This document shows, one piece after another, positions 1 to 54,471 of a stretch of DNA of 64,000 nt (positions are counted from its first letter, which is position 1; every line of letters begins with the position of its first letter). Origin of the DNA: Edaphobacter sp. (GTDB taxonomy: Bacteria; Acidobacteriota; Terriglobia; Terriglobales; Acidobacteriaceae); contig CBDICJ010000007.1 in NCBI GenBank assembly GCA_965277335.1, positions 155,780-219,779 of the forward strand, in the 5' to 3' direction. The notes under the pieces were generated by a model, which worked only from the letters and a program-made list of their open reading frames with translations, made no database searches and was not told where the DNA came from. Both the position numbers and the translations under genes were made by a program.

Positions 1-272
1 CCGTCCTCCGCCTGCACTTCCAGCCCCGCTTCACAGAACTAAAGGTAGATGCGCCCGGCTTCAATACTTTCTTGAAGCAATCCTTCGCCCAGAAGCGAAA
101 GACGCTGCAAAATAATCTCCGCACCGCCGGCTACCCAGCGGAAGACCTATCCGCCGCCTGGCCCGCCAGCATTCCCCCACAAGCGCGCGCCGAATCGCTG
201 GACCTGGAATCCATGGCCACCCTCTACCGCTCCCTCGCGACCACCGCTACGCGCGGGGCGGTCACTTCGTGA
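1..272 (+). CDS. rsmA: 16S rRNA dimethyladenosine transferase RsmA/KsgA, C-terminal fragment (5' end outside window)
   Basis: Frame 3 is open from nt 3. FLKQSFAQKRKTLQNNL...PQARAESLDLESMATLY resembles the KsgA C-terminal helical domain. The last ~8 codons run into repeat A1. Confidence 0.7.
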   Translation, partial: VLRLHFQPRFTELKVDAPGFNTFLKQSFAQKRKTLQNNLRTAGYPAEDLSAAWPASIPPQARAESLDLESMATLYRSLATTATRGAVTS

Positions 273-420
273 TGTGTATACCTTGCCTCGATAGATTGAG
301 TTGTATCGGTCTTTAGTTGATCGCAAGAAGATCTCCCGCCGACCATCGGGAGGCCCACCCGAAGGGGTACATACGCCACGAAGTGGCCGCTCTCCGCGCA
401 GGAGGCCCGTCCGGCAGGAC
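247..420. repeat. Repeat module A, copy A1 (left end truncated)
   Basis: Aligns by eye with 25381-25571. Shared blocks: GCGCGGGGCGGTCACTTCGTGA..GTATACC ... CCCGCCGACCATCGGGAGG ... GAAGGGGTA.ATACGC.CACGAAGTG ... GCGCAGGAGGCCCGTCCGGCAGGAC. Confidence 0.85.
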
Positions 421-449
421 GACCTCGTTGCGCATTCTGAGAAGAAGTT

Positions 450-1169
450 TCAGCGCCCCTCAGCCAGCATCTTCGCCGCCCGCAGCCTCACCCGCTCAAT
501 CACCGCTGCATCCTCGGCAATCGCGCTCAGCGCCGCCGAAATCGTGCCCAGCTCCAGCGCACGGCCCTCCGTCACCTCTTGTGAAAAAGAGTTCATCTCC
601 GAGTCCAGGCCCAGCCGGTCGTAGCGGTGCAGAAACTCCAGCCGGCGCCCTTCATCCATCGTGCTCGCAATGCCGAGAAACACGTCTGTCAGCAGAACCG
701 CGTTTTTATTTTCCGTGTAGTTGTACACGCACGACCCCGAACCATCCGCGCCCGAATAGCTCAGCGTCTTGGTTCCGGTATCCGCGATATTCTTCGCCTT
801 CGACGCGCATGCAAGTTCGAAGCGATTCGCCGAACGCGCCGCGTTGAAGATCTTCGCAACCATCTGCGGGCTCACCGTAAGCGTGCGATCGATATGCTGC
901 GCCGCCTCTCCCCGCATCATCGAATCACCGGACGATCGCGCCGCTTGGTCCGCCTGATAGCTGCCCGTGCCGTCCTCACGCACTCGCAGCGTAAACCGCG
1001 GCACTGGAAGACCCTCGCGGACAAACCAGAAGGTCACCTCGGCCTGCGCCGCGGCAGACATATCTGTAGCCGCGCCAGAGACATTTGTAGTCGTGGCTGA
1101 CTGTGCGACTGCAAGAGCACCGGGAAGCAACAGCGCCGCCGCAAAGATACCTCGCGCGACACCGGTCAT
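450..1169 (-). CDS. Secreted hypothetical protein (signal peptide)
   Basis: N-terminus MTGVARGIFAAALLLPGALAVAQS is signal-peptide-like. The ATG overlaps the ruvC stop (TGATG). No family recognised. Confidence 0.6.
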   Translation of the reverse strand: MTGVARGIFAAALLLPGALAVAQSATTTNVSGAATDMSAAAQAEVTFWFVREGLPVPRFTLRVREDGTGSYQADQAARSSGDSMMRGEAAQHIDRTLTVSPQMVAKIFNAARSANRFELACASKAKNIADTGTKTLSYSGADGSGSCVYNYTENKNAVLLTDVFLGIASTMDEGRRLEFLHRYDRLGLDSEMNSFSQEVTEGRALELGTISAALSAIAEDAAVIERVRLRAAKMLAEGR

Positions 1170-1675
1170 CACCGGGCGCCCTGCAATTCCAGCGTCTGCG
1201 CGGTATGGATATGACAGATCGCGATAGCCAGGGCGTCCGCGGCATCCGGCGAATCGAAGGCATTCTCGTTTTGCAGCAGACGTCTCACCATAAACTGCAC
1301 CTGCTCTTTACCCGCCAACCCATAACCCACCACCGAACTCTTGATGGAAAGCGGAGCATACTCCGCCACCGGCAGCCCACAAGTCGCAGCCGCCAGCATC
1401 GCAACCCCGCGAACCTGCCCCAGCTTGAGCGCGGACTTGGCATTTGCCGAAAAGAAGACCTCTTCAATGGCGACGATCTCCGGCTGATGCAGCGCCAACA
1501 TCGCAGTCAACTCCGCATAGACCTGCGCCAGCCGCTGCGGAGTCTTCTCGGCTTTGTTCAGACGAATCGTTCCAGCACAGATATGCGCCAGCCGCGGCAT
1601 CCTGGCCTCACAGTCCACCTCGACTACGCCGTACCCAGTGAACTCCGTGCCGCAATCGATGCCGAAGACTCGCAT
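1169..1675 (-). CDS. ruvC: Crossover junction endodeoxyribonuclease RuvC
   Basis: MRVFGIDCGTEFTGYGVV... matches the RuvC N-terminal catalytic motif. Length ~168 aa. Start trimmed to the ATG at 1675. Confidence 0.9.
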   Translation of the reverse strand: MRVFGIDCGTEFTGYGVVEVDCEARMPRLAHICAGTIRLNKAEKTPQRLAQVYAELTAMLALHQPEIVAIEEVFFSANAKSALKLGQVRGVAMLAAATCGLPVAEYAPLSIKSSVVGYGLAGKEQVQFMVRRLLQNENAFDSPDAADALAIAICHIHTAQTLELQGAR

Positions 1676-12230: not shown

Positions 12231-14741
12231 CTACCAGGTAAACCGGAGCGTCCGCTCCACATAGCCGCTACCTTGGGGGAAACTAAGTTCGATGGGCTGC
12301 AGCGGGCGTGACGACATGAGCCTTCCGTCCATCTGTACCCGAAGCTGCAGGTCGTTGATGCGAGTCTGCAGCTGCTGGCGGGAGCCCGCTGGAGCCGATA
12401 ACCGCAAGGTCAGCGATCTTGCATCGAGCGTCTGGTCGAGCACCTTCATCTGATGCGTGACGTCGCCTGGCACAGGCAGCGCCGACGCGACGAAAACCTC
12501 AACTGCGGGCAGCGGAATCAGCAGCGAGCCTCCACTCCGCCGCGTACCCTGCACAGAGCTCTCCAGGCCCACCTCGTTGCTCGCCGTAACTGCCATCTCG
12601 CGGCCCTTGCGCGTGAACTCCAGGTCGGTAAATCCTGTGCCTATCGCCAGCCTGCGCATAGCTGCGTGGTCCCAGTCGGCGGGAAGACTCGGCGCGACCG
12701 AGACGGTGTTGCGCGCGGCATCCCAGGAGATGCCGAACAGGCCGCGCACGATCGGCGTCACAACCATGGCCGAGGACCACAACTGGTGCGCCGTGCTGCG
12801 TCCCAGCGGCCGGAAATACTCGCCCGAGAGCAGCTCGGTGACGTCGCCCAGATCCTGCGACCAGGTCATGTTCGCGTTCTGCTCCAGGTGCGCGTAGCCG
12901 GAGAGGCTGCGGCCGGTGCGGTACTCCGCCAGCGAAACCCACCCCGTGTAGAGCGGCCACACCGTGCCCTGGTGATAGCTGATCGGATCGTAGAACGAGG
13001 TCGCCGGGCTGAGGTCGCGCGTGCCCCAGTCGGTCGAGAACTCGCTCGAAGCCCACCGCGTCATCAGAGATCCGGCTTTATCGAGCGCGAGGCCGCCGTC
13101 CCACCAGGCGACCGAAGGAAAGATGGTGGCGCTATCGTCCGTGCTGCCGTCCGCATTGCGGCTGAAGGCATAGCTCTGCGTCTTCGGCAGGTAGTATTCC
13201 TTTTCAATCTGCGCCTTGACGTGTTCGGCCCGGCGCTGTGCCGCGGCGGCAAGATCGCCATGCCCGGTCGCCTCGGCGAGCTTCGCGAAAGCTGTGCTTG
13301 CCTGCTGGTCGAGCGCGGCGAGATAGATCTCCTGGTGCGGCATCCCCGGCGGCCAGCTTTCCACCCACGCCGAGCCTTCGGTGTTCTCGTAGATGCCGTC
13401 GCCGTCGGAGTCGTGTGAGGTCTCGAAGCTCCACGCCTTCGCCAGCCCTGCCCAGTTCTTTTCGACGAATGCCTTATCGCCGCTGATCGCCAGGTAATCC
13501 TGCACCTCCATCAACAGCAGCGAAGTGGCATCGGCCGAGGCCCACTCGTAGGGCAGCCGCGCCCAGTCCACCAGGTCGGCGGCCTGCGACCACTCATGCA
13601 TGATCTTGCCGTCGCTCCTCTGCCGCTTCAGCAGAAACTCGACCTCCTGCCGCGAGAGCTTCAGGTCGCCGTAGCTGTTGACCGCGTACAGCGACCAGAG
13701 CGCGTCCCTGCCGAAAAACCAGCCGAAGCCGGGACGGGCGGTATCGCCGGAGGAGACAAAACCGGCGACCAGCCCGGTCTCGCTGTGCGTTGGAATCGTC
13801 TCCACACGCAACTGATCGATCGAAATTTCTCCCCAGCGGAATGCATCGTCGAGTTTGTGATCCGGCGTCTCGATCCCCGTGTGCTGCGCGAGGAATTGCT
13901 TGTAGTAGGCATGGTTATCCGCGAATGAATTCGCGAAGTTCGTATCCTGCGCGAGCAGCAGCTTGTCGAAGTTCTGCTTCGTGGCGGTCTGCTCGGTGTC
14001 CGCCGTGGCCATCAGCAGAGGATAGACATTGCCGGCGTCCCTCTTCGGATCGAAGTGAACGACGAACTGCAGAGGATAGACCTTCGCATGCTCTTGATAG
14101 GGAGCGAGGATGCCTGGCTGCGCGCCGGGAATCGCCAGCGCCGAAGCGTGATCGGGGAAGTTGAGGTGCAGCATATAAAAGCCGCTGCCCTCCGCGGTCG
14201 CAACCCACTCAGGCGAGGGTATGTCGTCCGACTGAGCCGGCCAGATGCACTTCATCTCGGGCGTGAAGCTGAAGGTGATGTCCATGGGCCGGATCGCCTG
14301 CACCTCGAAGTAAGCCGCCACGCCCGAGCCATCGACGGGGTGGTTGGGGGCAAAGAGCACCTCGCGAATCGTGAAGTTGGCATGGGCGAAGGTGATCGTC
14401 GTGCGATCCGGCTGCACTTCAATCGTCGAGGCATACTCGTTCACGTCGATAGGGACGTTGTAGTCCTGCATACGCGCCGCGATGCGCATATCTCGGAAGA
14501 GCTTCCAGGGAAAGATCCAGCTCTCGAACACGCCATCTTGCTGGCCCAGCAGCGCTCCTCGCGGCCCCACCACGGACAAAGGCTTGGCCGGGTTGATCTC
14601 CTGCAGAATAGAGAGGCCGCCGGTGCCGGGGCTATCGAATCGCGCGACCGGGGGCAACGCCCCTAAGGCAACCTCCGGTGTCTGTGCGGTGAGTGGCAGG
14701 CAAAACAGAATTGCGGCGCACGGGAAGAGGAGGACTTTCAT
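12231..14741 (-). CDS. Secreted (alpha/alpha)6 glycoside hydrolase, amylo-alpha-1,6-glucosidase/GDE_C-like
   Basis: GFGWFFGRDALWSLYA and YHQGTVWPLYTGW motifs are typical of the glycogen-debranching-like six-hairpin fold. Start trimmed to MKVLLFPCAAILFCLPLTAQ (signal peptide); the upstream ORF extension is repeat DNA. Confidence 0.7.
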   Translation of the reverse strand: MKVLLFPCAAILFCLPLTAQTPEVALGALPPVARFDSPGTGGLSILQEINPAKPLSVVGPRGALLGQQDGVFESWIFPWKLFRDMRIAARMQDYNVPIDVNEYASTIEVQPDRTTITFAHANFTIREVLFAPNHPVDGSGVAAYFEVQAIRPMDITFSFTPEMKCIWPAQSDDIPSPEWVATAEGSGFYMLHLNFPDHASALAIPGAQPGILAPYQEHAKVYPLQFVVHFDPKRDAGNVYPLLMATADTEQTATKQNFDKLLLAQDTNFANSFADNHAYYKQFLAQHTGIETPDHKLDDAFRWGEISIDQLRVETIPTHSETGLVAGFVSSGDTARPGFGWFFGRDALWSLYAVNSYGDLKLSRQEVEFLLKRQRSDGKIMHEWSQAADLVDWARLPYEWASADATSLLLMEVQDYLAISGDKAFVEKNWAGLAKAWSFETSHDSDGDGIYENTEGSAWVESWPPGMPHQEIYLAALDQQASTAFAKLAEATGHGDLAAAAQRRAEHVKAQIEKEYYLPKTQSYAFSRNADGSTDDSATIFPSVAWWDGGLALDKAGSLMTRWASSEFSTDWGTRDLSPATSFYDPISYHQGTVWPLYTGWVSLAEYRTGRSLSGYAHLEQNANMTWSQDLGDVTELLSGEYFRPLGRSTAHQLWSSAMVVTPIVRGLFGISWDAARNTVSVAPSLPADWDHAAMRRLAIGTGFTDLEFTRKGREMAVTASNEVGLESSVQGTRRSGGSLLIPLPAVEVFVASALPVPGDVTHQMKVLDQTLDARSLTLRLSAPAGSRQQLQTRINDLQLRVQMDGRLMSSRPLQPIELSFPQGSGYVERTLRFTW

Positions 14742-14835
14742 ACTCCAAACAATACCGCGTCGTGGCGTTCTGTGGGACTCCCTTCGGAGACCGTCTGAAG
14801 TCCCGCCTTGGAACCCGTCCAATAACTTCAAAGAA

Positions 14836-39333: not shown

Positions 39334-40977
39334 ATGCGCGGTATCCTGAATCGGCATCCGGCGGCGTTGGTCTCGTGCCTGTTCCTGGCAATCGTATCCG
39401 CGCTGGTGGTGATCCTCCGGCGACAGACGGGCGGGATGTTTGTCTATCCGCTCGACGACAGCTACATTCATCTGGCGCTGGCGCGCACGTTGATTCGGCA
39501 TCATGTCTGGGGCATCGACGGGAGTGCGTTTGCGAGCGCATCGTCGTCTCCGGGGTGGACGATTCTGCTGAGTCTGTGCGATGGGATATTCGGCGCGCGC
39601 CTGTTCAACGGGCTGCTTGCGAACCTGGTGGCGGGGGTTGGGGTTCTGTTCGCCGTCGATTATGGGATGCGGGCTCTTGTGCCGGCGGCGGGGGTTGGCG
39701 TTCGCTATGTCGTGCTGCTTGTCGTTTTATTCGGGACGCCGCTGCCCAACCTGGCGCTGCTCGGGATGGAGCATGTGGCGCAGACGCTGGCTACGCTGCT
39801 GCTGGTGTTATTCAGCGTACAGGCGATTGCCGTGGAGAGGAGGTCGGCAATCCCGCGCGGCGTTGTGTTTCGCCTACTGCTGCTGGCCGCTGCTGCCGGA
39901 GCGCTTCGCTATGAGGCGGTCTTTGTAGTGGTTCCAGTGTGCCTATTGCTTGCGGCGCGTGGCCGGGTGGGAGTGGCCGCGCTGGTGGGGCTTTGCTCGG
40001 CGGTTGGGCCGGTCGTCTTCGGCGCGTATTTTTATCACAAGTCTGGGTTGTGGCTGCCGTTCTCGGTGATCGTGAAAGCTGCCGAGCCGAGGACGGCGGC
40101 GGCGAATTTTTTCGTCGAGGCGCTGCATCACACCAATGGTGCACGGTTTCGGCCGATGCTTATCCTGATGGCAGCCGTATGGCTGGTGCGCCTGCGCAGG
40201 CTCGCCTGGATGCGGCCGTCTCAGGTGCTGCTGGGGTTGAGCTTCCTGGTCTGCCTGCTGCATCTTGTCTTCGCTCCGGTGGGCTGGCTGATGCGGTATG
40301 AAAGCTATCTGTTTGCGCTCGCGTTTTTTTCGCTCGGCGTTGCGCTTGCGGAGCTGCCGCCGCTGAGGGCGTGGGGTAAGGAGGTCGTGAGATCCTCGCC
40401 TCTGGTGTGGGCCGAGATCGGTTTGATCGTTCTTCTGGGAGCGAGAGTGGCGGGCGATGTCGTGCTTCGGGCGGTGAGTGGGCTGGAGCTGCCGGTTGAG
40501 GCATCGGTCGACCGCTACTATGAACATATCCAAATGGCGAAGTTCGTCGCCAGGGACTATGACCATGACACGGTGGTGGTGAACGACATTGGCGCAATCG
40601 CGTACTACTCCGATGCGCACCTTTTGGATCTGATTGGGCTTGGGAGCGCGGGGCCGGCGATCGCGACGCACGCGAAGCATCCTTATACGCCTAGCGATGT
40701 GAAGGACTGGGCCGCGTCCGAGCATGCCTCGATTGCGGTCGTGCAGTCGCACTGGCACGCGGTCGCCGATATATTGCCGCCGTCCTGGACGAAGGTTGCG
40801 ACCTGGGTGGTGCCGCGCAACGTCGTGTTCGGGGACTATGACGTCGGGTTTTATGCAGTGAACCCGGCGGAGGTCCCCAGGCTTTGCGCAAGTCTGATGA
40901 GCTTCCCCCTACCGCCGAAGGACAGGATTGAGCTTTCGCCGGTGTGCAAAGCGCAGGGAGTGCCGAAGGGTCTCTGA
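39334..40977 (+). CDS. Large polytopic membrane protein with C-terminal soluble domain (possible GT-C-like glycosyltransferase)
   Basis: 547 aa with ~11 hydrophobic segments and an early DD motif (VYPLDDSYIHL) in the first loop, as in GT-C enzymes. Function not established. Confidence 0.55.
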   Translation: MRGILNRHPAALVSCLFLAIVSALVVILRRQTGGMFVYPLDDSYIHLALARTLIRHHVWGIDGSAFASASSSPGWTILLSLCDGIFGARLFNGLLANLVAGVGVLFAVDYGMRALVPAAGVGVRYVVLLVVLFGTPLPNLALLGMEHVAQTLATLLLVLFSVQAIAVERRSAIPRGVVFRLLLLAAAAGALRYEAVFVVVPVCLLLAARGRVGVAALVGLCSAVGPVVFGAYFYHKSGLWLPFSVIVKAAEPRTAAANFFVEALHHTNGARFRPMLILMAAVWLVRLRRLAWMRPSQVLLGLSFLVCLLHLVFAPVGWLMRYESYLFALAFFSLGVALAELPPLRAWGKEVVRSSPLVWAEIGLIVLLGARVAGDVVLRAVSGLELPVEASVDRYYEHIQMAKFVARDYDHDTVVVNDIGAIAYYSDAHLLDLIGLGSAGPAIATHAKHPYTPSDVKDWAASEHASIAVVQSHWHAVADILPPSWTKVATWVVPRNVVFGDYDVGFYAVNPAEVPRLCASLMSFPLPPKDRIELSPVCKAQGVPKGL

Positions 40978-41012
40978 GAGGCTGTTTAAATACTGCTTTA
41001 CGGTTCAGATGT

Positions 41013-41127
41013 AACAAAAAACAGACAACAACAAAAGCGAAATGCGGGGATCTCTCCACTACGCCGTGCGATAAAACCACACGGCTTCGGCCGAGATGAC
41101 GACTTTAAGAAGTTATTAGACAGGTTC
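41013..41127. repeat. Repeat module B, copy B7
   Basis: AACAAAAAACAGACAACAACAAAAGCGAAATGCGGGGATCTCTCCACTACGCCGTGCGATAAAACCACACGGCTTCGGCCGAGATGACGAC..TTAGACAGGTTC. Confidence 0.85.
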
Positions 41128-41158
41128 TGAGAGGCTGTTCCAAAAACCAGACAGGCGG

Positions 41159-42018: not shown

Positions 42019-42072
42019 CTTCTAGAGCATCTTCGGTGAAGGGGTGGACGGTCGGGGGAAGAGTCGTGATCT

Positions 42073-42136
42073 CCCACCCTTTGCGCAAAGTGACGCGCAA
42101 AGGATGGGGCACCCGAAGTTTGCACCCGAAGTTTGC
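42073..42136. repeat. Repeat module C, copy C6 (in the rpsB-tsf spacer)
   Basis: CCCACCCTTTGCGCAAAGTGACGCGCAAAGGATGGGGCACCCGAAGTTTGCACCCGAAGTTTGC. Confidence 0.8.
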
Positions 42137-43107: not shown

Positions 43108-43270
43108 GAGGCTCCTTGGTTTAAGACAGCCGGTACCGTGGTGCCGGTGCCTGGATTAATCCTTCGCCTTACGAGACAGGCTCGGGAGATTTGACTCCAT
43201 TCCCTCGATGGAACAGCTTCGAGGGGTGATGCGATGACTTCGATTGGTTCGGGTGGCCCAAACTCTACTG

Positions 43271-43311
43271 GCGGGAAAACCCAGGTCTCAGAATCGAGAC
43301 CTGGGGCACCC
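43271..43311 (-). terminator. Module C copy C7 acting as a terminator-like hairpin downstream of rpsI
   Basis: Minus strand: CCCAGGTCTC-GATTCT-GAGACCTGGG followed by TTTTCCCGCC, starting ~20 nt after the rpsI stop. Confidence 0.4.
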
Positions 43312-43331
43312 AATTGCTTACCGGCCAGTTG

Positions 43332-44673: not shown

Positions 44674-46749
44674 CTACCGAGGCTTTCGCGGTTCCGTCAA
44701 GGATTGATTCGAGGGACCTTCTGAATTCGGGCCGGTTGCGGGAGTGGCTAAGTCCGTAGCCGATTCCGTTGCTAAGTCCAGGATGTACATGCTGCCGTCG
44801 TCATAGAGGCGGCGGCGGGTGCGGGCGAGTTCGGCGTATTGCTGGTGGGAGCGGAGAGCGATTCTGGCCTCGCTGTGGATCCACTGGGTTCGGCTGGGGT
44901 CGGCGATGACGTGGGGAGCGCCTTCGTCGAAGCCGGCGAAGTCCGCGTAGTTGTAGACGAGGTAGCGGAGGTGGTGGGCGAGAAGGTACTGGGCGAGGGC
45001 TTCGCCGTTCTGGCGGGAGGGCCAGCCGGGGGGAAGGCTGGCGGCGCCGGGATAGTCGGCGATGTCGATGGGATGGGCGCGGAAGTCGAGCAGGAAACTG
45101 TTGCCGACGGTGGCGAGGGTGCCGGCGTCGTCAGGAAGCGCGCGCTGCATGGCGGCGTATTCGGCGTGGACGCTGGGGGGGACGATGGGAATGTCGAGCA
45201 GTGCGGATTTGAGACCCCAGGGGATCTGCAGAAACTCGTTGGTGAGCTTATTGCGCCAGATGGAGACGGCTGCCAGCACGATGAGCAGGACGGTGCAGGT
45301 TTGGAGGATGAGCCAGCGGCGGGTCTTGAATACAGCTTGCGATACGGCTGGGAAGACGGCGTTGGCCCGGCGGCTGAAGACGACATAGAGAAGAAGGATG
45401 GCTGGGAGCATGCAGGGGTAGTTGTAGCGGCGCACGGAGTCTCCGCCGGTGGCGATGCCGACGAGCAAGGCGGCCCCGAAGGCGGCGGCGGAGAGGGCCA
45501 GGATGGCTTCGGACTGTTCGTCGCGCTCGCCGCGGGTCTTGAAATTCCAAAGAGTCTTGAAATTCCGGGGATTCCCGGGATTCCAGGGATTCCAAGATGT
45601 CCACAGAATCCATTCGACGAGGAAGAGGAGGAGCAGCGGAAGGCAGAACGGGACGACCTTGTGCAGGAGGATGGAGATGCCGGCTCCTGAGGGCGCGGGG
45701 TAGAGGCCGTAGGCGCTGTATTGATAGCCGGGGCCGAGCGAGGGATAGAAGAAGGTTCCCGAGGCGCTATGGCTGGCGATCATCCAGGGAGCCATGATGA
45801 GTAAGGCGCCGAGGGCGGCCAGGAGGAGGGTTTTGAGGCCGGATGCGAGGCTGCGGCGCCTCCAGTGGAAGAGGGCGAGGCAGCCTGCGAAGAGGACGCC
45901 GTGCGGCAGGTAGGTGGACTTCATGGCGGCGACGGCTCCGGTGACCGCGCCGAGGAGGAGAGCGAGGAGGGCTGGATGTTGGGCGAGGAGTTTTCGATTG
46001 GCGGCGAGGGAGACGAGGCCGAAGAATAAGGCGCTGGGCAGCAGGACGAAGGTGAGGTTGAACTGAAGCTGCGGGGTAAAGACGACGAGCAGGGCGAAGA
46101 TGGCTCGCTGCATGGAGGTGAGGCGGAATTCGCGGGCAAGATCGAAGACCAGGAAGGCGAGGAGGAAGAGACCGAGAGCGCGGTCGGCCATCTGGACGTC
46201 TTCAAGGGGGAGGACGGCAAGGACCATGTCCTGCAGGAAATAGTTGCCGCCGATGCTGGACATGATGCGGCGCTCGCTGAAGGGATCGGCGGCGTAGTGG
46301 TGGAGTTCGAGCATCTTGCAGGGGGCGGCGAGATAGAAGTTGTAGTCGTCGGAGGCCTGGTACTGGCCCGCATGCACGGTTGCGCCGAGGCGGATGGCGA
46401 AGAGGAGGGCGGCGAGGCAGAGCAGGAGAGTGGCGGCGCGGGAATGGGGCGGCTGGACGGCTTTGTCTTCTGGCTCGGAGTTGGCGAGGGGGATGCGGAG
46501 CAGGAGGGCGGCGATGATGCCGAACAGAGAAAGGGCGATGAGGATGGGAGAGGTAATGGCGTGGGCGAGATTCAGACAGCCGCCGAGGAGGAGGACGACG
46601 GGGACGCCGGCGGTGGCTGCAAGGGCGATGGACGGGCGGCGCAGGCCGAAGAGTCGCAGCAGGATGGCTCCATAGCCGGCGAGGGAGAGGAAGAGAAGAG
46701 CGCACCAGAGGAGGGCTTCGGCGAAGTGCAGGAGGGAGGCTGGCGTCAT
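44674..46749 (-). CDS. Large polytopic membrane protein with C-terminal soluble domain (unknown function, envelope-glycan-like context)
   Basis: 691 aa with ~14 hydrophobic segments and a ~200-aa C-terminal hydrophilic domain. Divergent from an acyltransferase-3 gene. Confidence 0.6.
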   Translation of the reverse strand: MTPASLLHFAEALLWCALLFLSLAGYGAILLRLFGLRRPSIALAATAGVPVVLLLGGCLNLAHAITSPILIALSLFGIIAALLLRIPLANSEPEDKAVQPPHSRAATLLLCLAALLFAIRLGATVHAGQYQASDDYNFYLAAPCKMLELHHYAADPFSERRIMSSIGGNYFLQDMVLAVLPLEDVQMADRALGLFLLAFLVFDLAREFRLTSMQRAIFALLVVFTPQLQFNLTFVLLPSALFFGLVSLAANRKLLAQHPALLALLLGAVTGAVAAMKSTYLPHGVLFAGCLALFHWRRRSLASGLKTLLLAALGALLIMAPWMIASHSASGTFFYPSLGPGYQYSAYGLYPAPSGAGISILLHKVVPFCLPLLLLFLVEWILWTSWNPWNPGNPRNFKTLWNFKTRGERDEQSEAILALSAAAFGAALLVGIATGGDSVRRYNYPCMLPAILLLYVVFSRRANAVFPAVSQAVFKTRRWLILQTCTVLLIVLAAVSIWRNKLTNEFLQIPWGLKSALLDIPIVPPSVHAEYAAMQRALPDDAGTLATVGNSFLLDFRAHPIDIADYPGAASLPPGWPSRQNGEALAQYLLAHHLRYLVYNYADFAGFDEGAPHVIADPSRTQWIHSEARIALRSHQQYAELARTRRRLYDDGSMYILDLATESATDLATPATGPNSEGPSNQSLTEPRKPR
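45536..45596. repeat. In-frame tandem repeats inside the membrane-protein gene
   Basis: GTCTTGAAATTCC x2 (19-nt period), then (G/C/A)GGGATTCC x3 (45567-45593). Encodes WNPWNPGNPRNFKTLWNFKT. Confidence 0.85.
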
Positions 46750-48341: not shown

Positions 48342-48512
48342 GGGGGACGGCTCGCTCGAGACCCACATCTCAAAATCGAGATATGGGGCACCCGGCGACA
48401 AATGATGGGACTGTTTGTCACTTACCATCCCTAGCGAGCAAGTGCGCTCGTCGGGGGACGGCGCGCTTGAGGCCCACATCTCAAAATCGAGATGTGGGGC
48501 ACCCGGCACCCG
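48342..48512. repeat. Two module C copies (C8, C9) with D-like and B-like fragments
   Basis: GGGGACGGCTCGCTCGAGACCCACATCTCAAAATCGAGATATGGGGCACCCGG (to 48395) and GGGGACGGCGCGCTTGAGGCCCACATCTCAAAATCGAGATGTGGGGCACCCGGCACCCGG (to 48512). CTTACCATCCCTAGCGAGCAAGTGCGCTCG lies between them. Confidence 0.85.
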
Positions 48513-48576: not shown

Positions 48577-51537
48577 TCACGTGCTGCGAGAGGTGCGCGA
48601 GTGCGCGGGATCGAGGATTGCGTATTCGATGCGATTGCGTCCTCTATTCTTCGCGAGGTACAACGCTCTGTCGGCGGCGGCAACAGCATCGCCGGCATCC
48701 ACGCCGTAGTCGCCTCCAGCCAGCGCGACACCGATGCTGCAGGTGACCACGAGCTTTTGCTTACCGATTGGGACCGGATCTTCGGTTAGAGCTGACTTGA
48801 GTTTTTCCAATCTTGCTCCGAGCGCTGCCATCTCGAGGTCGGCGAGTCTCTGCGGATGGGGCAGCAGAACCAGAAACTCTTCGCCGCCATAGCGCCCGGC
48901 GGCATCGTAGGCGCGGATACCGCTGCTGAACCGGCGGCCGATCTCGCGCAAGACAGCATCCCCCGCCAAGTGGCCGTGCTCATCGTTGATGGCTTTGAAG
49001 TAGTCGATATCGATCAGCACCACAGCGAGCGCCGTGTTCGCGCGTTTCGCCCGCGCGAACTCGCTTGTCAGCAGCTCCACGATCCGGTTGCGATTCCACA
49101 GGCCGGTGAGGGTGTCGCGGGTGGCCAACTGCTCGAGTTCCCGGGTGCGAACCGACACCAGGGTCTCGAGCTCCTGCTGCCGTCGCAGCAGATGACGGAC
49201 GCGCAGCCTCCAGGCCAGCAGCACGCATGCGGTGACGACCAGCACCTCCAGCAGGCTCGAGAGACCGGTCTGCCACCATCGCGGGGAGATCACAAAATGA
49301 AAGGTCGTGGAGGGCGAGACGGAACGCGACACCGGGTCGACCGAGACCAGTTCCAAGGTGTAGGCACCCGGCGGCAGAGGAGAGTAATGCGCGGAGGTCT
49401 TGTCGGTCGAAATCCAGTCTGGATCGATCTCGGTGAGGCGATATCGATAGGTAAGCTCGCTTTCGTGGTCGTAGGCAAGCGGCGAAAAATCGATATCGAG
49501 CGGCTGGCCGTGCCATGGCGTTCTGCCGGTGGCTGCGCTCAACGAGACGCGTCCATACTTGATCGAATCGACGCGGGGGGCGGGCGGAGGCGTCGATGCG
49601 GCCACCGAGGAGCCGACATAATGGCTCAAGCCTTCGCTGGTGCCGATCCATACCGTGCCATCGCGATCCGCAAAGAACGCTTTGGAGTTGACATCGTTCC
49701 ACAGCAGGCCATCGTCGGTGTTGAAGAGGCGCCATCTCTGGCCGTCGAAGACATCGACTCCACTGTCGTGTCCGACCCAGATGCGGCCGCGCCGGTCGCT
49801 GCGAGCGAAGACTGCCATCTTGGAGGAGACCTCTTGCGGTCCCATCGGCTGCGCGGCCGCGACTCGTCCCTGCTTGAGAGTCAACTTCCAGACGCGCGAA
49901 TAATCCGTCACCGCCCAGAGCGATCCATCGGTGCCGAAGTCGATATCGATAAACTGGGTGGGGAGCGAGGGCACATCGATCGGCGCTGCCCGCCAGGCTC
50001 CGTCCACCATTTCAAACAAGCCTGCCAGACTGGCCGCCCACAGCTTCCCCTGGCGGTCTGCGATGACGCGATAGACATCGGTCGCCGGCGTGCCTGCAAG
50101 ATCGACTCTCACCGCCTTTTGTCCGGCTGGGGCGGCGGCATCGACCATGTAGAGTCCCTGTTCGGTGGAGATCCAGATCCTGTCTTCCCTATCGGCAAAG
50201 ATCTGGTGCCCGGAAGGAAGATCCGGATAGCGTTCGATCTTCCCTGTGTCCGGGTCGATCTTGATCAGGGCGCCCTGGCCACTGATAGCCCAGATTTTTC
50301 CAAGGCGGTCCTGGGTGATTCCCTGCATGCTGCGGGCGGAGTGTTTCAAGCTGCCGGTTACAGAGTGGAAGCGCGTCCGCGATGGATCGCTCACACTGAT
50401 ACCGCCCTCTTCGGCGACCCACAGCCGGTTTTTCTCGTCGTTCAGGATTCCCCATACGATTGAGCTTCCCAGGCCATCCGCGGAGGTCCAGTTCTCCCAC
50501 TTGCCGTAGCCCAGCCAGCGCACTACGCCATGGCCTACCAGGCCCATCCAGATGCGACCGTCGTGGTCGATCAGAAGAGAAGAGAGCGCGGAGGCGATCA
50601 GTCCATGAGCCTCGTTCAGAAAGCTCCAGCGGCCGTCTTTCCACAGCGCCAAGCCTGTCTCCGCAGCCGTCGCGATCTTTCCATCGGAGGTCTCGGCGAA
50701 GCTGATGTAGTAGTTGTTGGTGAACTGGCCGGCATCGGCTCCGGCACGGTCTTCAAAGCGCGGCGCGCCGCGGGGCAAAGCAATCACGCGGTTATTGCTC
50801 CGCGCCCAAAGAGTTCCGTCGCTGCTGGAAAAGAGCGCATACCAAGCCGCGTCCGGCACGCCCTGGTCCTGGCTCCAGCGGTGCAGCTTTCCATGGAGAA
50901 ACTGACAAAGGTTGTGCCCGCAACCCAGCCAGATCTCCTCTCCGCCGCGCGCCAAGACGCTGGTGATCGCCTCTTCGGAAGACAGTCCGCGAAATTCGGC
51001 GAGTTCAAGGGCAGGCTGCGCATACGGCCTACCGTCGGCGTCTCGCGAGACGGCGAACAGGCGATAGTTTCCGACGACCAGAAGGCGTCCATCGCCCAAT
51101 GCGGCTATGGAAGAATCGACTCCGACGCCGATCGGTTTCCCTTTGTAGAGGACACCGTGGAAGCTGCCGTCTTGCTGCGATTTCTGAGATTCCCGGGATT
51201 CCCGGGACTCCCGATAGAACAGCCCGCTTCCGGTGCCTGCCCAGAGACGCCCCGCCGCATCTTCGGCCAACGCGACCACGTAGGGGTTCGTCAGGCCTTC
51301 CGCCGCGCCGTACTGCTGAAATCGGCTGCCGTCGTAGCGGAAGAGTCCATTGTCGGTCCCCATCCAGAGAAAGCCAGCACGGTCTTGCAGCATCGAATCG
51401 ACGTTCAGATTCTTCAAGCCTTGGGCCTGGCCGTAGGTCTTGAAGGCATAGCGCTGCGCCCCGCCCGGAACAGCCGCGGCCGCGCACAAAAGACCACACA
51501 ACAAAGATGTGGCCGGCAAGGTTGACCGGGTTCGCAG
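48577..51537 (-). CDS. Periplasmic beta-propeller (Reg_prop) / Y_Y_Y sensor diguanylate cyclase (GGDEF)
   Basis: Repeated ..LWxGTxxGLxxxD.. propeller motifs, one TM, and a C-terminal GGDEF domain (RYGGEEFLVLL, DIDYFKAINDEHGH). No ATG precedes the signal peptide LLCGLLCAAAAVPGGAQ. The start is guessed at CTG 51537 or TTG 51519. The upstream ORF extension is repeat DNA. Confidence 0.85.
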   Translation of the reverse strand: MRTRSTLPATSLLCGLLCAAAAVPGGAQRYAFKTYGQAQGLKNLNVDSMLQDRAGFLWMGTDNGLFRYDGSRFQQYGAAEGLTNPYVVALAEDAAGRLWAGTGSGLFYRESRESRESQKSQQDGSFHGVLYKGKPIGVGVDSSIAALGDGRLLVVGNYRLFAVSRDADGRPYAQPALELAEFRGLSSEEAITSVLARGGEEIWLGCGHNLCQFLHGKLHRWSQDQGVPDAAWYALFSSSDGTLWARSNNRVIALPRGAPRFEDRAGADAGQFTNNYYISFAETSDGKIATAAETGLALWKDGRWSFLNEAHGLIASALSSLLIDHDGRIWMGLVGHGVVRWLGYGKWENWTSADGLGSSIVWGILNDEKNRLWVAEEGGISVSDPSRTRFHSVTGSLKHSARSMQGITQDRLGKIWAISGQGALIKIDPDTGKIERYPDLPSGHQIFADREDRIWISTEQGLYMVDAAAPAGQKAVRVDLAGTPATDVYRVIADRQGKLWAASLAGLFEMVDGAWRAAPIDVPSLPTQFIDIDFGTDGSLWAVTDYSRVWKLTLKQGRVAAAQPMGPQEVSSKMAVFARSDRRGRIWVGHDSGVDVFDGQRWRLFNTDDGLLWNDVNSKAFFADRDGTVWIGTSEGLSHYVGSSVAASTPPPAPRVDSIKYGRVSLSAATGRTPWHGQPLDIDFSPLAYDHESELTYRYRLTEIDPDWISTDKTSAHYSPLPPGAYTLELVSVDPVSRSVSPSTTFHFVISPRWWQTGLSSLLEVLVVTACVLLAWRLRVRHLLRRQQELETLVSVRTRELEQLATRDTLTGLWNRNRIVELLTSEFARAKRANTALAVVLIDIDYFKAINDEHGHLAGDAVLREIGRRFSSGIRAYDAAGRYGGEEFLVLLPHPQRLADLEMAALGARLEKLKSALTEDPVPIGKQKLVVTCSIGVALAGGDYGVDAGDAVAAADRALYLAKNRGRNRIEYAILDPAHSRTSRST
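51186..51212. repeat. In-frame 9-nt tandem repeat (x3) inside the diguanylate cyclase gene
   Basis: GAGATTCCC GGGATTCCC GGGACTCCC. Encodes RESRESRES on the minus strand. Same unit as at 45567-45593. Confidence 0.85.
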
Positions 51538-51571
51538 GGTTTTTGGAATCTGTTTAGAAACCAGGAACCCA

Positions 51572-51598
51572 GCACCGATTTTCACCGATGACACCGAT
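51572..51598. repeat. Repeat module E, copy E3 (reverse orientation)
   Basis: GCACCGATTTTCACCGATGACACCGAT is the revcomp of ATCGGTGTCATCGGTGAAAATCGGTGC. Compare 14998-15028 and 54439-54471. Confidence 0.75.
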
Positions 51599-51749
51599 GC
51601 GGGGGAAGAGCCAACAGCAGATTCCTTCGCTGCGCTGCGGAATGACAACCCAAAGAAGAGGCGGCGACGGCGGAAAAGGGTAATGGCCGCTGTTTTTGAA
51701 CAGGTTCTTAGAACCTGTTTAAGAACGAAAGATTTGTGGAATACATGAC

Positions 51750-51905
51750 GTAAAGCAAGCACCAGCAAAAGCGGATGCGGGGATCTCTCCACGCCGCCGC
51801 GCGATGAAGCCGCCCGGCTTACCACCCCAGCGAGCAAAGGCGCTCGCCGGGGACTCCAATGGCTGCGGTCCAGATGACGACCACATTGAGTTTTTTCACA
51901 GGTTC
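51750..51905. repeat. Composite repeat B + D, copy B8
   Basis: GTAAAGCAAGCACCAGCAAAAGCGGATGCGGGGATCTCTCCACGCCGCC...GGCTTACCACCCCAGCGAGCAAAGGCGCTCGCCGGGGACTCCAATGGCTGCGGTCCAGATGACGACC...CACAGGTTC. Confidence 0.8.
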
Positions 51906-52256
51906 TTAAAGGCAGCATCGGTGGGATCGCTCTTCGGTTCTTTCCAAACCGCAGGCTTCCTGCGCGCGAACAAGCTGCAACGTGCGATAGCTGGGCCTGA
52001 TTCTCCAGAGTATTATCACCGTTCCCGCGTCTCTTGTCCCGACTTTCCGCAGAATCCGGTCTTCGCATCAGAAATGTTAACAAAGGCAGCCCTCAGTCGA
52101 ACCGTTCATCCGTTCATCGGCGTGCCAGCAAACGCCTGTCGCGCGGCGCGCATCTTTCTAGCAAGACTTCCTGCTTGGAGGCAGGACGGCAATACCCTGT
52201 CGGTGTGAGTAGGGATCACCCGGATCGAACCATCTAGAATCGAATCACCGAGAACT

Positions 52257-54314
52257 ATGGAGCCTATGAAACCTGTCGAAGGGCGCAAGCGTGTCGTCAT
52301 AGAAGAAGTTCAGCCACAGGTAGACTGCGGCCGCTATCCTGCAAAACGCATTATCGGCGACGTCGTCAGCATATCGGCCGCCGTCTTCGGGGATGGACAC
52401 GACCACGTCGCGGGCCGCCTGCTCTATCGAGCCGGTAAAGAAGACGGCTGGCGTTCCATCGCTCTTACTCCCCTCAGCAACGACCTATGGACTGCCAGCT
52501 TCACGGTCGACCGTCTCGGCGACTGGCGCTACACTCTCGAAGCCTGGATCGACCATTTCGACACCTGGTGCGACGACCTGAAGAAGCGTCTCGCCGCGCA
52601 GCCAACGCCCGACGCACAGACCCCGGCCACCGAAGCGCAGGACATTCCTCTCGCTCTCCGCTCCGGCGCTCTTCTGCTGGAGCAGGCCGCGCATCGCGCC
52701 AAAGACCCCCACAAGACCCTGCTCGCCGACGCGGCAGCCAATCTAAACCAACTCGCGGACCGCAACTCCGCCGCGTATGAATATCCCATCTCCGCCGAGG
52801 TCGCCGAAGCAGCCGCGCTCTATCCTGACCCCACCTTGATCACCCGCTACGCGCAGGAGCTGCCTCTGTGGGTTGACCGCGAGCGGGCGCGCTACTCGAC
52901 CTGGTACGAACTCTTTCCCCGCTCCGCAGCGCCTGCGGCGATGGAGGGCGGCGCCATTCGCCACGGCACCTTCGCCGACGTGCAGGCGCTTCTGCCCGAG
53001 ATCGCCGCGATGGGCTTCGACGTCGTTTATCTGCCGCCGATCAGCCCTATCGGCAACGCCTACCGCAAGGGCCGCAATAACAGCGTCACCGCAAACGCAG
53101 ATGACCCGGGGAGCACCTGGGCAATCGGCTCTAAAGAGGGCGGTCATAAATCCATTCTGCCCGAGCTCGGCACGCTGCGCGACTTCAAGGGACTCGTCGC
53201 CGTTGCCCGCGATCACGCGATGGAGCTCGCGCTTGACATCGCATTCCAGTGCTCGCCGGATCACCCCTGGGTCGCCGAGCATCCCGAGTGGTTCATCATT
53301 CGCCCGGACGGCTCCATTCAGTACGCGGAAAATCCGCCGAAGAAATATCAGGACATCTATCCGCTCAACTTCGAATCTTCCAACTGGCGCGGCCTATGGG
53401 AGGCGCTCCGCGACGTCTTTGCCTACTGGATACGCCAGGGCGTTCGCATCTTTCGCGTCGACAATCCCCACACCAAGGCTCTGCCGTTCTGGGAGTGGTG
53501 CATCGCCGATCTCCACGTCAAATACCCCGACGTGCTTTTCCTCGCCGAAGCCTTCACTCGCCCGCACGTCATGTACTCGCTGGCGAAGGCCGGCTTTACC
53601 CAGTCCTATACCTATTTCACCTGGCGCACCACCAAGGCCGAGCTGCAGCAGTATTTCGAGGAGATCACCAAGCCGCCGGTGACCGATTTCTTCCACCCGA
53701 ACCTCTGGCCGAACACCCCGGACATTCTCCACGCCACGCTCCAGACGGGAGGCCGTCCCGCCTTTATGCAGCGCGTGATTCTGGCTGCTACGCTGGGCGC
53801 GAACTACGGCATCTATGGACCGGCCTACGAGCTCGGCGAAAATCTTCCCGCCAAGCCCGGCAGCGAAGAGTATCTCAACAGCGAAAAATACGAGATTCGG
53901 CAATGGGACCGCACCGCGAGCCACAGCATCGCGCCTCTGATCACGAATCTCAACCGCATCCGCCGCGAAAATCCTGCGCTGCAGAACGATATCTCGCTGC
54001 ACTTCCACAATGTCGATAATCCGAACGTCCTCTGCTACAGCAAGTGCGCCGACAACAATCGCATTCTGGTCGCCGTCAACCTCGATCCCACGCAGGAACA
54101 GGCGGGCTGGATCGACCTCAACCTGAAAGAACTCGGCGTGCCGCACAACCAGAACTTCGATGTGGAGGATCTTCTCACCGGCATCCATTACCAGTGGCAC
54201 GATCGCAGCAACTATGTCGCGCTGCGCCCTGATGTCATGCCCGCCCACATCTTCCGTGTCACTATTCCAAGTCCCGCTGCTATGTCATCGGAGGCCGAAC
54301 CAAGCAAGGCCTAA
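52257..54314 (+). CDS. glgE: Alpha-1,4-glucan:maltose-1-phosphate maltosyltransferase GlgE
   Basis: N-terminal VIEEVQPQVDCGRYPAKR..GDVV.., YSTWYELFPRS, FRVDNPHTK, and GH13_3-type catalytic core. Confidence 0.92.
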   Translation: MEPMKPVEGRKRVVIEEVQPQVDCGRYPAKRIIGDVVSISAAVFGDGHDHVAGRLLYRAGKEDGWRSIALTPLSNDLWTASFTVDRLGDWRYTLEAWIDHFDTWCDDLKKRLAAQPTPDAQTPATEAQDIPLALRSGALLLEQAAHRAKDPHKTLLADAAANLNQLADRNSAAYEYPISAEVAEAAALYPDPTLITRYAQELPLWVDRERARYSTWYELFPRSAAPAAMEGGAIRHGTFADVQALLPEIAAMGFDVVYLPPISPIGNAYRKGRNNSVTANADDPGSTWAIGSKEGGHKSILPELGTLRDFKGLVAVARDHAMELALDIAFQCSPDHPWVAEHPEWFIIRPDGSIQYAENPPKKYQDIYPLNFESSNWRGLWEALRDVFAYWIRQGVRIFRVDNPHTKALPFWEWCIADLHVKYPDVLFLAEAFTRPHVMYSLAKAGFTQSYTYFTWRTTKAELQQYFEEITKPPVTDFFHPNLWPNTPDILHATLQTGGRPAFMQRVILAATLGANYGIYGPAYELGENLPAKPGSEEYLNSEKYEIRQWDRTASHSIAPLITNLNRIRRENPALQNDISLHFHNVDNPNVLCYSKCADNNRILVAVNLDPTQEQAGWIDLNLKELGVPHNQNFDVEDLLTGIHYQWHDRSNYVALRPDVMPAHIFRVTIPSPAAMSSEAEPSKA

Positions 54315-54438
54315 CACCGATTTCAGCGATTCAAGACACGATGAGGAGACATGCGCACGGCCGTTTTTTCTCATGCTTTTGTCTTCTTGTTTTCAAGCGT
54401 TCCTCCGCGCCAATGCGCGGTTGTTAATTATTAAGTTT

Positions 54439-54471
54439 GATCGGTATCATCGGTGAAGATCGGCGTTAAGC
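54439..54471. repeat. Repeat module E, copy E2
   Basis: GATCGGTATCATCGGTGAAGATCGGCGTTAAGC. Confidence 0.75.

Follow-up and report, generated by a model that had tools for sequence, protein, structure and literature searches.

Nested families of short palindromic elements in an Edaphobacter chromosome segment and the association of one hairpin family with a Y1 transposase gene in related Acidobacteriaceae

What are the short palindromic sequences that lie between the genes of an Edaphobacter chromosome, and what might have spread them? We address this question for a window of 64,000 nucleotides (nt) from Edaphobacter sp. (assembly GCA_965277335.1, contig CBDICJ010000007.1). An earlier note on this DNA had described one system of shuffled modules, called A to E, that was likened to repetitive extragenic palindromes (REPs) and to the bacterial interspersed mosaic elements (BIMEs). 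The modules instead belong to at least four families with unlike end structures, which are nested or fused together. We consider it probable that these are separate small elements, in which the C hairpins are served by a Y1 enzyme of the REP-associated tyrosine transposase (RAYT) type, module B and the outer arms of D resemble MITEs (miniature inverted-repeat transposable elements), module A resembles the REP doublets named REPINs, and an insertion sequence (IS) has entered hairpin loops.

Repeat load and families in the window

A census on a curated gene map yields about 27 blocks of short repeats amounting to about 2.93 kb, or 4.6% of the window, with a 1.3-kb insertion sequence extra to this total. 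Self-BLAST of the window returns 22 blocks (2785 nt, 4.4%). The census agrees with the more than 25 copies, roughly 3 kb and 4 to 5% that had been estimated by eye. The statement that nearly every gap is filled was somewhat overstated, given that repeats occupy 17 of the 24 gaps of at least 80 nt. All three gap types are indeed occupied, as the earlier note held: repeats stand in 11 of the 14 tandem gaps, in 4 of the 5 convergent ones and in 2 of the 5 divergent ones. Divergent gaps are typically those least occupied by REP-like elements, and the window fits this pattern.

The module motifs that had been quoted all recur far beyond chance expectation. At up to three mismatches, GGCTTCGGTCGAGATGACG is found in 10 copies (0.03 expected); GCGGGGATCTCTCCACTGCGC and GTCCTGCCGGACGGGCC each occur seven times (0.01 and 0.65 expected), and GGGGCACCCGG occurs 11 times (3.2 expected). 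The composites reported at 37005-37241, 51750-51905, 14836-15028, 27893-28023, 29004-29138 and 35967-36076 hold on direct reading, and one copy does lie in a coding sequence, as had been said (26218-26284, a C unit in frame in a DUF2339 gene). The repeats do account for the recurring peptides of the open reading frame (ORF) track. MRPHEWGTR is encoded by ATGAGACCGCATGAATGGGGCACCCGG of module C, VERSPHF is read on the reverse strand of B, and RRPSGGPPEG is a translation of the center of A. The modules also recur outside the window, contrary to the first condition that the earlier note had set for its own refutation. Module C is found across the Acidobacteriaceae, module A in Tunturiibacter and many soil and peat metagenome contigs, and B/D mainly in the window's own lineage. 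The claim that the window holds no RAYT gene or intact transposase is correct as regards intact genes, but a decayed DDE transposase gene of the IS481 family lies between inverted D copies (18141-19456). This gene and a C unit at 42072-42116 had been overlooked.

The FtsK protein of the window is 99% identical to one encoded on an ENA metagenome contig of 524 kb, and its identity to the proteins of Tunturiibacter gelidoferens and T. empetritectus is 86-87%; because of these values we place the host chromosome in the Acidobacteriaceae, near Tunturiibacter. The orthologous region was compared in L001, a close relative with 97.4% identity across 14.3 kb, and in T. gelidoferens (L002, L003).

Tagged C hairpins and a Y1 gene in related genomes

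The C hairpin consists of CCCA/G, a stem that varies with copy and species, an A-rich loop, the complementary stem, TGGGG and an unpaired CACCCGG tail. The units measure 33-45 nt, and ten that bear a hairpin occur in 64 kb, nine of them extragenic. Across Acidobacteriaceae loci the unit runs from (T/C)CCC(A/G) through a variable stem, its loop and the complementary stem to (T/C)GGGG and then CACCC. The stems differ freely among species; the hairpin ends and the tag are constant. A stem of at least 9 bp that ends in the GGGG of the tag precedes 103 of 238 tags, compared to 7 of 238 in shuffled sequence. The C features of the window are as follows.

26218-26284, plus strand: C-type REP unit, in frame within the DUF2339 gene and antisense to it
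27764-27839, plus strand: C1 unit, hairpin A, CCCACCCATGCG-ATGAGAC-CGCATGAATGGGG, CACCCGG tail
27889-28023, plus strand: leader with C1 unit, followed by slippage repeats of CACCCGG and one extra tag; a further unit of about 145 nt is present in L001
29001-29138, plus strand: leader with C1 unit, followed by two extra tags; in L001, further unit sequence lies just downstream
35966-36076, plus strand: leader and C2 unit, CCCACATCTC-AGAATC-GAGATATGGGG, then CACCCGG
42072-42116, plus strand: C-type REP unit, CCCACCCTTTGCGC-AAAGTGAC-GCGCAAAGGATGGGG, then CACCCGA
43280-43312, plus strand: C2 unit, stem fully compensated, CCCAGGTCTC / GAGACCTGGG
48342-48396, plus strand: C2 unit
48453-48507, plus strand: C2 unit, 111 nt 3' of the C2 unit at 48342 and in equal orientation
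19528-19553, plus strand: truncated C2 unit, GAAGAATCGAGATATGGGAACGCGG; complete in L001

The intragenic unit falls in an insertion of about 40 amino acids (aa) that the T. gelidoferens DUF2339 ortholog lacks. Arrays of C units run head-to-tail, with spacings of 151 and 111 nt, and show no alternation of two REP types in orientation. The REP/BIME analogy proposed earlier holds for module C and the D core, which are tagged hairpins with a RAYT-type gene bracketed in relatives, but not for the strict BIME layout.

The sections on RAYT-like genes in Di Nocera et al. 2013 (PMC3733652) describe "TIRYT" genes with flanking inverted repeats, among them a sharply defined group that is restricted to Acidobacteria. 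The Acidobacteria TIRYT sequences of that paper served as queries, with the Granulicella mallensis sequence taken from its supplement. The G. mallensis query gives 474 homologs, T. empetritectus proteins among them. Genome collections contain at least 584 homologous stretches, and Tunturiibacter is not among the matches listed.

In T. empetritectus, a Y1_Tnp gene of 153 aa resides between FBPase and peptidase M24 genes, at the same place in two strains, and carries module C on both flanks in reverse orientation. Its flank includes CCGGGTGCCCCATCCTTTCGCAGTCTCATCGCGATAGGGTGGGG and a second hairpin, the counterpart of ...CCCACCCATGCGATGAGACCGCATGAATGGGGCACCCGG in the window; the GATGAGAC loop is identical, whereas the stem differs. 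Against NCBIfam model NF047646 (REP-associated tyrosine transposase; cutoff 80) the protein reaches 105 bits, and it retains the HVH and Y...NP motifs. The gene is intact and conserved across the Acidobacteriaceae.

Flanks were counted at 80 loci with homologous Y1 genes from species-representative Acidobacteriaceae genomes, taken from the at least 584 stretches. Within 250 nt of the Y1 gene, the strict tag GGGGCACCCGG reaches 24 times its density elsewhere. On direct reading, 31 apparent exceptions proved to have equal architecture with slightly different last bases. With a relaxed tag, [TCG]GGG[GC]CA[ACG]CC, the upstream flank carries a minus-strand copy at 72 of the 80 loci, the downstream flank carries a plus-strand copy at 64, and at least one is present at 77, for a density of 5.07 per kb near the gene versus 0.23 per kb elsewhere. 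Both flanks are tagged at 59 of the 80, where the hairpins form an inverted pair with their tags outward, the most common arrangement. The Y1 gene and the C hairpins are therefore associated in these relatives, and the hairpins may well be the substrate of the enzyme.

Several further observations concern C units and their surroundings. At five loci (L021, L011, L064, L024, L018), head-to-tail arrays of 3-5 C-type units with a period of about 50-90 nt adjoin the Y1 gene on its upstream or downstream side. A tag variant, GGGCCACCCG (other strand CGGGTGGCCCA), often lies just outside the main C-type hairpin at Y1 genes (for example L009, L014, L053, L059 and L081) and is also present beside the window C2 unit at 43280, at about 43246-43260; it may represent a second unit type of the C system. 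A 1.5-kb segment (27667-29248) contains two glyoxalase-family genes (28090-28906) with leader and C1 units on both sides in equal orientation, and T. gelidoferens has a 44-nt gap between its DUF2339 and response-regulator genes at this position. The glyoxalase cassette may have been inserted or moved via recombination between the flanking repeats. Finally, a direct repeat of about 25 nt, CCACCTGTAGCTGGGGCTGGGTG, at 35689-35722 and 36080-36107 flanks a 390-nt non-coding stretch with several hairpins and a leader plus C2 unit, and may mark the edges of a larger insertion.

Modules D, B, E and A and an insertion sequence in hairpin loops

One composite in the window combines module D with an insertion sequence.

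18063-18140, minus strand: left arm of a palindromic D element, from its end GAACCTGTCTAAC through CGTCATCTCGACCGAAGCC and CCGGGGTCCCC to GGCGAGCGC
18141-19456, plus strand: insertion sequence of the IS481 family, inside the D hairpin loop; termini TGTTCAG...CTTGACA
19457-19527, plus strand: right arm of the D element, partner of 18063-18140

Between the inverted D copies (18063-18191 and 19402-19527) lies a gene in which HTH_32, rve and rve_3 domains are recognized. We classify this gene as a pseudogene because it is split over two frames, with the change at profile position 227, and carries an in-frame TAG in its N-terminal helix-turn-helix. Its best NCBIfam model is NF033577 (IS481 family, E = 1e-39), at 136.7 bits versus a 224-bit cutoff, a shortfall due to the split and truncation of the gene. 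An intact relative of 340 aa is 77% identical, and P0241 is a 98%-identical transposase. Elements of the IS481 family end in TGT...ACA and duplicate their target. Both the window IS and its relatives show the termini TGTTCAG...CTTGACA, and no flanking duplication was seen.

The window IS sits between GGCGAGCGC and GCACTCGCC, with GGGGACCCCGG following the hairpin. Uninterrupted D cores, CCCCAGCGAGC-AAAA-GCGCTCGCCGGGG plus ACCCCGG, are found in the B+D composites at 37090 and 51835. With ACCCCGG in place of CACCCGG as its tail, the D core belongs to the C family of hairpins and carries a variant tag. A copy of the IS in another genome (L209) lies between CCCCACCCTTCGCG-CTTTTG and GAAATGA-CGCGAAGGATGGGGCGCCCG, which together make a canonical C unit; two others (L207, L208) have C-type arms with other stems on both sides, and a further copy (L223) and a remnant (L077) have a C-type arm on the left, the sole flank visible. 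The copy in L219-L222 is ambiguous in this respect. Given that five relatives in other genomes have C-type hairpin arms at their flanks, three of them on both sides, the IS481-family element appears to home to the loops of C and D hairpins.

We considered whether D might be the terminal repeat of the IS481-type element and B its MITE. This was rejected, as intact relatives end in TGTTCAG...ACA inside unrelated hairpins. The IS has its own TGT...ACA ends within D, and within unrelated C hairpins elsewhere, and D is therefore a target rather than an IS end.

A parallel is provided by IS1397 and ISKpn1, elements of the IS3 family that insert into the REP loops of enterobacterial BIMEs; Tobes and Pareja are said to have treated IS insertion into REPs in 2006. 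The placement of an IS in the loop of a repeat hairpin is alike in both cases. However, the window element belongs to the IS481 family, its targets are acidobacterial C-type hairpins, and no target duplication is visible. To our knowledge, REP-loop homing would be the first such case for the IS481 family.

Modules B and E contribute the following features.

14807-14997, minus strand: B/D composite with tail, D-core hairpin carrying an IS481-type remnant of about 25 nt (TGT/AAAGCATGTCATGGAACTTGACA), B core and leader
20017-20130, plus strand: B short form with leader, GGGGATCTCTCCAC, 10-bp inner hairpin and GCTTCGGTCGAGATCACG
20201-20350, plus strand: full MITE-like B copy with terminal inverted repeats GAACCTGTCCAAATACTC / GAGTTTCTGGACAGGTTC and TAA on each side
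31997-32105, plus strand: B with 10-bp inner hairpin TGCTCACA(A)-ATGAGGC-TGTGAGCA
37006-37247, plus strand: B, uninterrupted D core (CCCCAGCGAGC-AAAA-GCCCTCGCCGGGG, then AACCCCGG) and three tandem tail units
40978-41133, plus strand: full B copy with TGA on each side, the left TGA being the stop codon of gene 39334-40977
51709-51907, plus strand: solo right end ACAGGTTC, TTA, then B and D core with terminal repeats and TTA on each side
14998-15031, plus strand: E unit, terminal repeat of a small element
31961-31993, minus strand: E unit at the expected position of the left terminal inverted repeat of the adjoining B copy
54312-54471, no strand assigned: element of about 160 nt with inverted E-type terminal repeats

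Full B copies start with GAACCTGTC(C/T)AA and finish with the inverse, ...TTAGACAGGTTC; these ends are identical to the outer arms of the palindromic D. They span about 150-240 nt between GAACCTGTC... and ...GACAGGTTC and contain no ORF. Identical triplets flank three of the five B copies that were read (TAA at 20201/20351, TGA at 40975/41134 and TTA at 51717/51908). The B/D copies of the window are 77-89% alike, and nhmmer recovers strong copies in the window and L001 only. B together with the outer arms of D forms a MITE-like shell, whose terminal inverted repeats and TNA triplets point to a DDE transposase acting in trans. These features resemble those tabulated in ISfinder for the IS5 family. 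The element ends of interest for matching to an IS are GAACCTGTC, TGTCCTGCCGG and GCTTAACRCCGAT.

The interior of B aligns with the C1 leader and inner hairpin, sharing a GCGAAATGCGGGGA leader and a GAT(G/A)A(G/A)AC loop, and B therefore looks like a C-type unit captured in a shell. Read on its reverse strand, B has the form CGTC/ATCTC...GAGAT/CCCC; a short form without the inner hairpin occurs in T. empetritectus (CGTCATCCTGAACGGAGTGAAGGATCCCC). The E units at 14998-15031 and 31961-31993 occupy the place of the left end of a B copy, and E is the terminal repeat of another small element.

Module A is a palindrome with four copies in the window.

227-420, no strand assigned: A copy 1, right arm intact and left terminus decayed, overlapping the end of a small ORF
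25380-25572, no strand assigned: A copy 2, between the DUF3999 and DUF2339 genes
30750-30946, no strand assigned: A copy 3
34124-34304, no strand assigned: A copy 4, left arm with the compensated hairpin CCCAC-TTC-GTGGG

The A termini, (T)GTCCTGCCGGACGGGCC, are perfect in the four window copies and in T. gelidoferens and T. empetritectus; the terminal inverted repeats of A, perfect over 17-18 nt, begin with TGT, and three of the window copies are intact. A scan of JGI metagenomes with the 17-mer of the A terminus gave at least 120 contigs, of which 665 kb was fetched, and the counts that follow are among the matches listed. Termini form 31 pairs placed 172-254 nt apart, and 117 are unpaired. 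Each half of A folds into three small hairpins. The first, GTCC-TGCC-GGAC, is invariant. In the second, C-C-N-N-C / TNCGC / G-N-N-G-G, compensatory changes are evident: among 106 distinct copies, pair 18/26 is GC in 33, AT in 32 and CG in 29, and pair 17/27 is CG in 82, TA in 16 and GC in 5. The third, G-N-N-A-C / TTC / G-T-N-N-C, shows compensation too. In copies 3 and 4, CCCAC-TTC-GTGGG on the left arm corresponds to GTCAC-GAA-GTGAC on the right; these arms differ yet each pairs, which argues that the local hairpins are kept rather than pairing between arms. By this architecture, A is a separate, REPIN-like palindrome of 172-254 nt.

The flank profile of 138 listed A copies has T at -1 (78%) and weak A at -7 and -6. 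An outward B/D terminus, GACAGGTCC, that adjoins the ends of copies 3 and 4 is not general in this profile and was dismissed as a feature of A. We also looked for an autonomous A element, but two wide terminus pairs hold an ordinary 456-aa ORF or short ORFs only, and no transposase. Some metagenome copies have a C-type hairpin, CCCCACAAACGAAGACCTGTTTGTGGGGACCCCGG, after the A terminus, which makes another mosaic. The GTCCTGCCGGACGGGCC terminus also heads a different repeat (then GGAGA.. or AGAAA..) in six metagenome contigs (L099, L112, L114, L120, L153, L184), with several copies on each and apparently in other taxa, and it may be a recognition site common to more than one element family.

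Repeat content differs between relatives. Where the window has gaps of 223 and 230 nt with A copies 2 and 3, T. gelidoferens has, respectively, genes that overlap by 4 nt and a gap of 42 nt. A lies in other gaps of T. gelidoferens, among them the one between ftsK and DUF3999, which in the window measures only 50 nt. Compared to L001, non-coding indels of at least 20 nt are found only in the leader plus C1 arrays (27981; 29140-29177), and synteny stops at 19527, the outer end of the right D arm and of the D/IS cluster. Aligning the window gaps with T. gelidoferens gave no exact empty sites, the intergenic DNA being too diverged. These differences show turnover, without separating transposition from recombination.

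The surrounding sequence is that of an ordinary chromosome, with a G+C content of 55-66% and genes for TamB, a BamA-like Omp85 protein, an FG-GAP/ASPIC protein, FtsK, DUF3999, DUF2339, RecQ, GlgE and a GGDEF sensor; a search of the window turned up neither tRNA nor tmRNA. The longest ORFs at 12231-14906, 36109-37218 and 48577-52083 extend 5' into repeat modules. Their true starts are probably near 14800, 36936 and 51600, and automatic annotation would probably over-extend them. Other repeats lie within genes. The 15-nt tandem repeat GGTCTGGGYTGCGAA at 33263-33381, inside the minus-strand gene 33056-34081, is a coding variable-number tandem repeat, since in L001 it is shorter by 42 nt. Two different genes contain runs of a 9-nt unit, ATTCCNGGG, at 45544-45611 (a 691-aa ORF with no Pfam hit) and 51171-51220 (a Reg_prop/GGDEF sensor). 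In the DUF2339 gene, a Pro/Thr-rich segment of about 38 aa at 26520-26640 (GEPAAAPEPTSTPNPTST...) is present in the window and L001, not in T. gelidoferens, and is distinct from the C-unit insertion.

Possible origins and relation to known repeat systems

The proposal of nested element families could work as follows. Several small non-coding families would have colonized the chromosome, inserting into and beside each other. In E. coli, TnpA-REP acts on REPs. By analogy, and with IS200/IS605-type biology (Quentin et al. 2018, PMC6006769) as its base, a RAYT-type Y1 (HUH) enzyme, presumably encoded elsewhere in the genome, would recognize the C hairpin and its tag on single-stranded DNA and would copy or maintain C units. 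A DDE transposase in trans would move the B/D shell, another, unrecognized enzyme would move A, and the IS481-family element would use hairpin loops as landing sites. Mosaic composites would then arise by nesting, by tandem amplification and by recombination among copies, and some families may still be mobile.

A number of observations weigh against this proposal. No Y1 gene was found in the window by tblastn, so that the link between C and Y1 rests on relatives, and the 80 loci were picked by protein similarity and share ancestry, which means that their counts do not represent independent events. In the window, the ten C units with a hairpin all lie on the plus strand, single or head-to-tail, and do not form the inverted doublets (REPINs) that are thought to be the mobile form in Pseudomonas. 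The GTAG/GTGG tetranucleotide 5' of the hairpin is absent, and the conserved unpaired element is instead the 3' CACCC(G/A)G after ...TGGGG. Flanking triplets are missing on two of the five B copies (37006 and L001 6689), and no IS was found whose ends would make it the parent of B/D or E; the only nearby IS has TGTTCAG... ends and is inserted into D. No Y1 or other transposase was found in the 665 kb around 120 listed A-terminus contigs. Lastly, the strain-level indels in tandem arrays could reflect slippage or unequal recombination.

The one-strand orientation of C fits a strand-specific mechanism or an orientation preference relative to transcription; the two are inseparable here because most neighboring genes are on the opposite strand. 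GC skew over 20000-48000 is strongly positive, with values up to +0.41 at 24-28 kb. The minus strand carries nearly all genes of this region, so that the coding strand is C-rich, which limits how the strand bias of the repeats can be read.

One alternative is that all modules are ordinary MITEs, that is, IS deletion derivatives moved in trans by DDE transposases, with the Y1 enzyme irrelevant. This would account well for the terminal inverted repeats of B/D and the 3-nt direct repeats of three of its five copies, for the TGT-beginning terminal repeats of A, for the inverted E pair 160 nt apart, and for a DDE transposase gene located between two D copies. However, the ends of the IS481-type element lie within D and within unrelated C hairpins, which makes D a target, and a parent IS was found for no family. 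In addition, no consistent direct repeat that would indicate a target duplication accompanies A in 33 full copies among the matches listed, and C lacks terminal inverted repeats and is tied to the Y1 gene at 77 of 80 loci. We therefore regard this alternative as unlikely.

A second alternative, which we judge marginally less probable, is that the repeats are mainly host-selected as RNA stabilizers or terminators, small RNAs or protein-binding sites, and that their spread is incidental. Small hairpins kept through compensatory changes would be expected in this case, as would the occupation of 15 of 19 tandem and convergent gaps versus 2 of 5 divergent ones and the presence of all C units on one strand. 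Covariation is equally expected, however, where a transposase must recognize a hairpin. Rfam contains no family for the window repeats, at the gathering threshold or at E-values up to 0.1, and terminator and promoter scans of the window revealed no enrichment at the repeats, with only weak terminator-like sites overlapping B tails. The folding energies of whole modules lie mostly inside the shuffled range, the signal being in the small inner hairpins. Moreover, repeats are found in either orientation relative to neighboring genes, one copy is intragenic, and orthologous gaps of relatives have no repeats.

The least probable alternative, that the units are immobile relics of an old burst varied only by recombination, slippage and gene conversion, would suit the confinement of strain-level indels to tandem arrays, the synteny break at a repeat cluster, the IS pseudogene and the excess of unpaired A halves (117 versus 31 pairs among the matches listed), but A and B/D sites differ between Tunturiibacter species and the window lineage, the 77-89% likeness of B/D in largely one lineage implies fairly recent spread, and the Y1 gene is intact and conserved family-wide.

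Returning to the proposal of nested element families, its parts can be set beside systems that are already known. The C system shares with the REP/RAYT systems of Enterobacteria and Pseudomonas its short, high-copy extragenic hairpins with an unpaired tag, variable stems and constant ends, and, in relatives, the placement of these hairpins around a single-copy, vertically placed Y1 HUH gene that passes the NCBI RAYT model. It differs in its tag (3' CACCCGG after ...TGGGG rather than 5' GTAG), in its phylum (Acidobacteriota), in that the Y1 protein belongs to a poorly placed Acidobacteria TIRYT group, and in the one-strand, partly head-to-tail units of the window. The inverted repeats that bracket the gene and the protein group (gma794, tsa392, aca645, aba3477) are those of the TIRYT/TIRtron elements, as far as the sections on them in PMC3733652 and their discussion in PMC6006769 convey. 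Unlike the situation in those accounts, the flanking repeat here is a dispersed, Acidobacteriaceae-wide hairpin family, and its tag misfits the GGGGWSAS consensus; for K. versatilis, the same sections of PMC3733652 state that only the repeats of ORF1552 form a repeat family.

Like E. coli BIMEs, the window composites are intergenic and combine REP-type hairpins with recurring non-palindromic linkers (an A/C-rich leader and a tail), but opposite unit types do not alternate, and the mosaics come from the nesting of unrelated families. Module A is comparable to REPINs (Bertels and Rainey 2011, PMC3116915) in being a long palindrome of two inverted halves with small hairpins, with single halves found as well. 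In contrast to REPINs, it has no adjoining RAYT gene in the 665 kb of listed contigs, is longer (172-254 nt), has three hairpins per half, and compensates its local hairpins rather than pairing arm to arm. The CGTC-tagged REPs, in the description that PMC3733652 gives of them, have a CGTC tag, a stem of 8-9 bp starting with AT, a 4-5 nt loop and a CCA-like tail, lack a dedicated transposase, and are not reported there in Acidobacteria. The reverse strand of B has a CGTC tag, an AT stem start and a C-rich tail, a likeness of form only, given that its stem has 5 bp and its "loop" 40-90 nt with a nested hairpin, outside the bounds of that description. Finally, the in-frame unit in the DUF2339 gene resembles Rickettsia palindromic elements and intragenic REPs, in that it adds a peptide and leaves the ORF intact, but it is a single case and in a membrane protein. 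A collection of viral contigs yielded nothing beyond chance matches, located in unrelated contexts, to the A terminus and the B/D core.

Earlier work has described REP/RAYT systems, REPINs, MITEs, in-frame REP insertions and REP-targeting IS elements, and in 2013 the parts of PMC3733652 cited above noted a RAYT-like group in Acidobacteria together with the repeats at its flanks. New here is that the flanking repeats belong to a dispersed, family-wide hairpin family with its own tag, together with families A, B/D and E and the apparent homing of an IS481-family element. A further reading, possible though doubtful in our estimation, is that of nested parasitism in three tiers for which no joint description exists so far: a family-wide RAYT/REP system, the A and B/D families without a Y1 or DDE partner, and an IS481-family element that homes to REP loops. 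If this were true, A and B/D would be moved by an unrecognized enzyme or by a RAYT acting on several unlike hairpins, and the one-strand orientation of C would result from copying on a single replication strand.

These findings do not alter how REPs, MITEs and IS elements are understood in general. Acidobacteria are among the most abundant soil bacteria, but their repeat content is hardly described; PMC3733652, the one paper found to bear on this, names only transposase genes and flanking repeats. A repeat catalogue would improve gene calling, where spurious ORFs and false N-terminal extensions arise, as at the three ORFs listed above, would help to explain breaks in metagenome assemblies, and could supply strain-level markers. 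For the IS481-family element, repeat hairpins may offer a safe landing site. For the family as a whole, the association of C hairpins with Y1 genes would provide a second, phylogenetically distant test bed for the view of RAYT/REP systems as long-lived, vertically inherited replicators.

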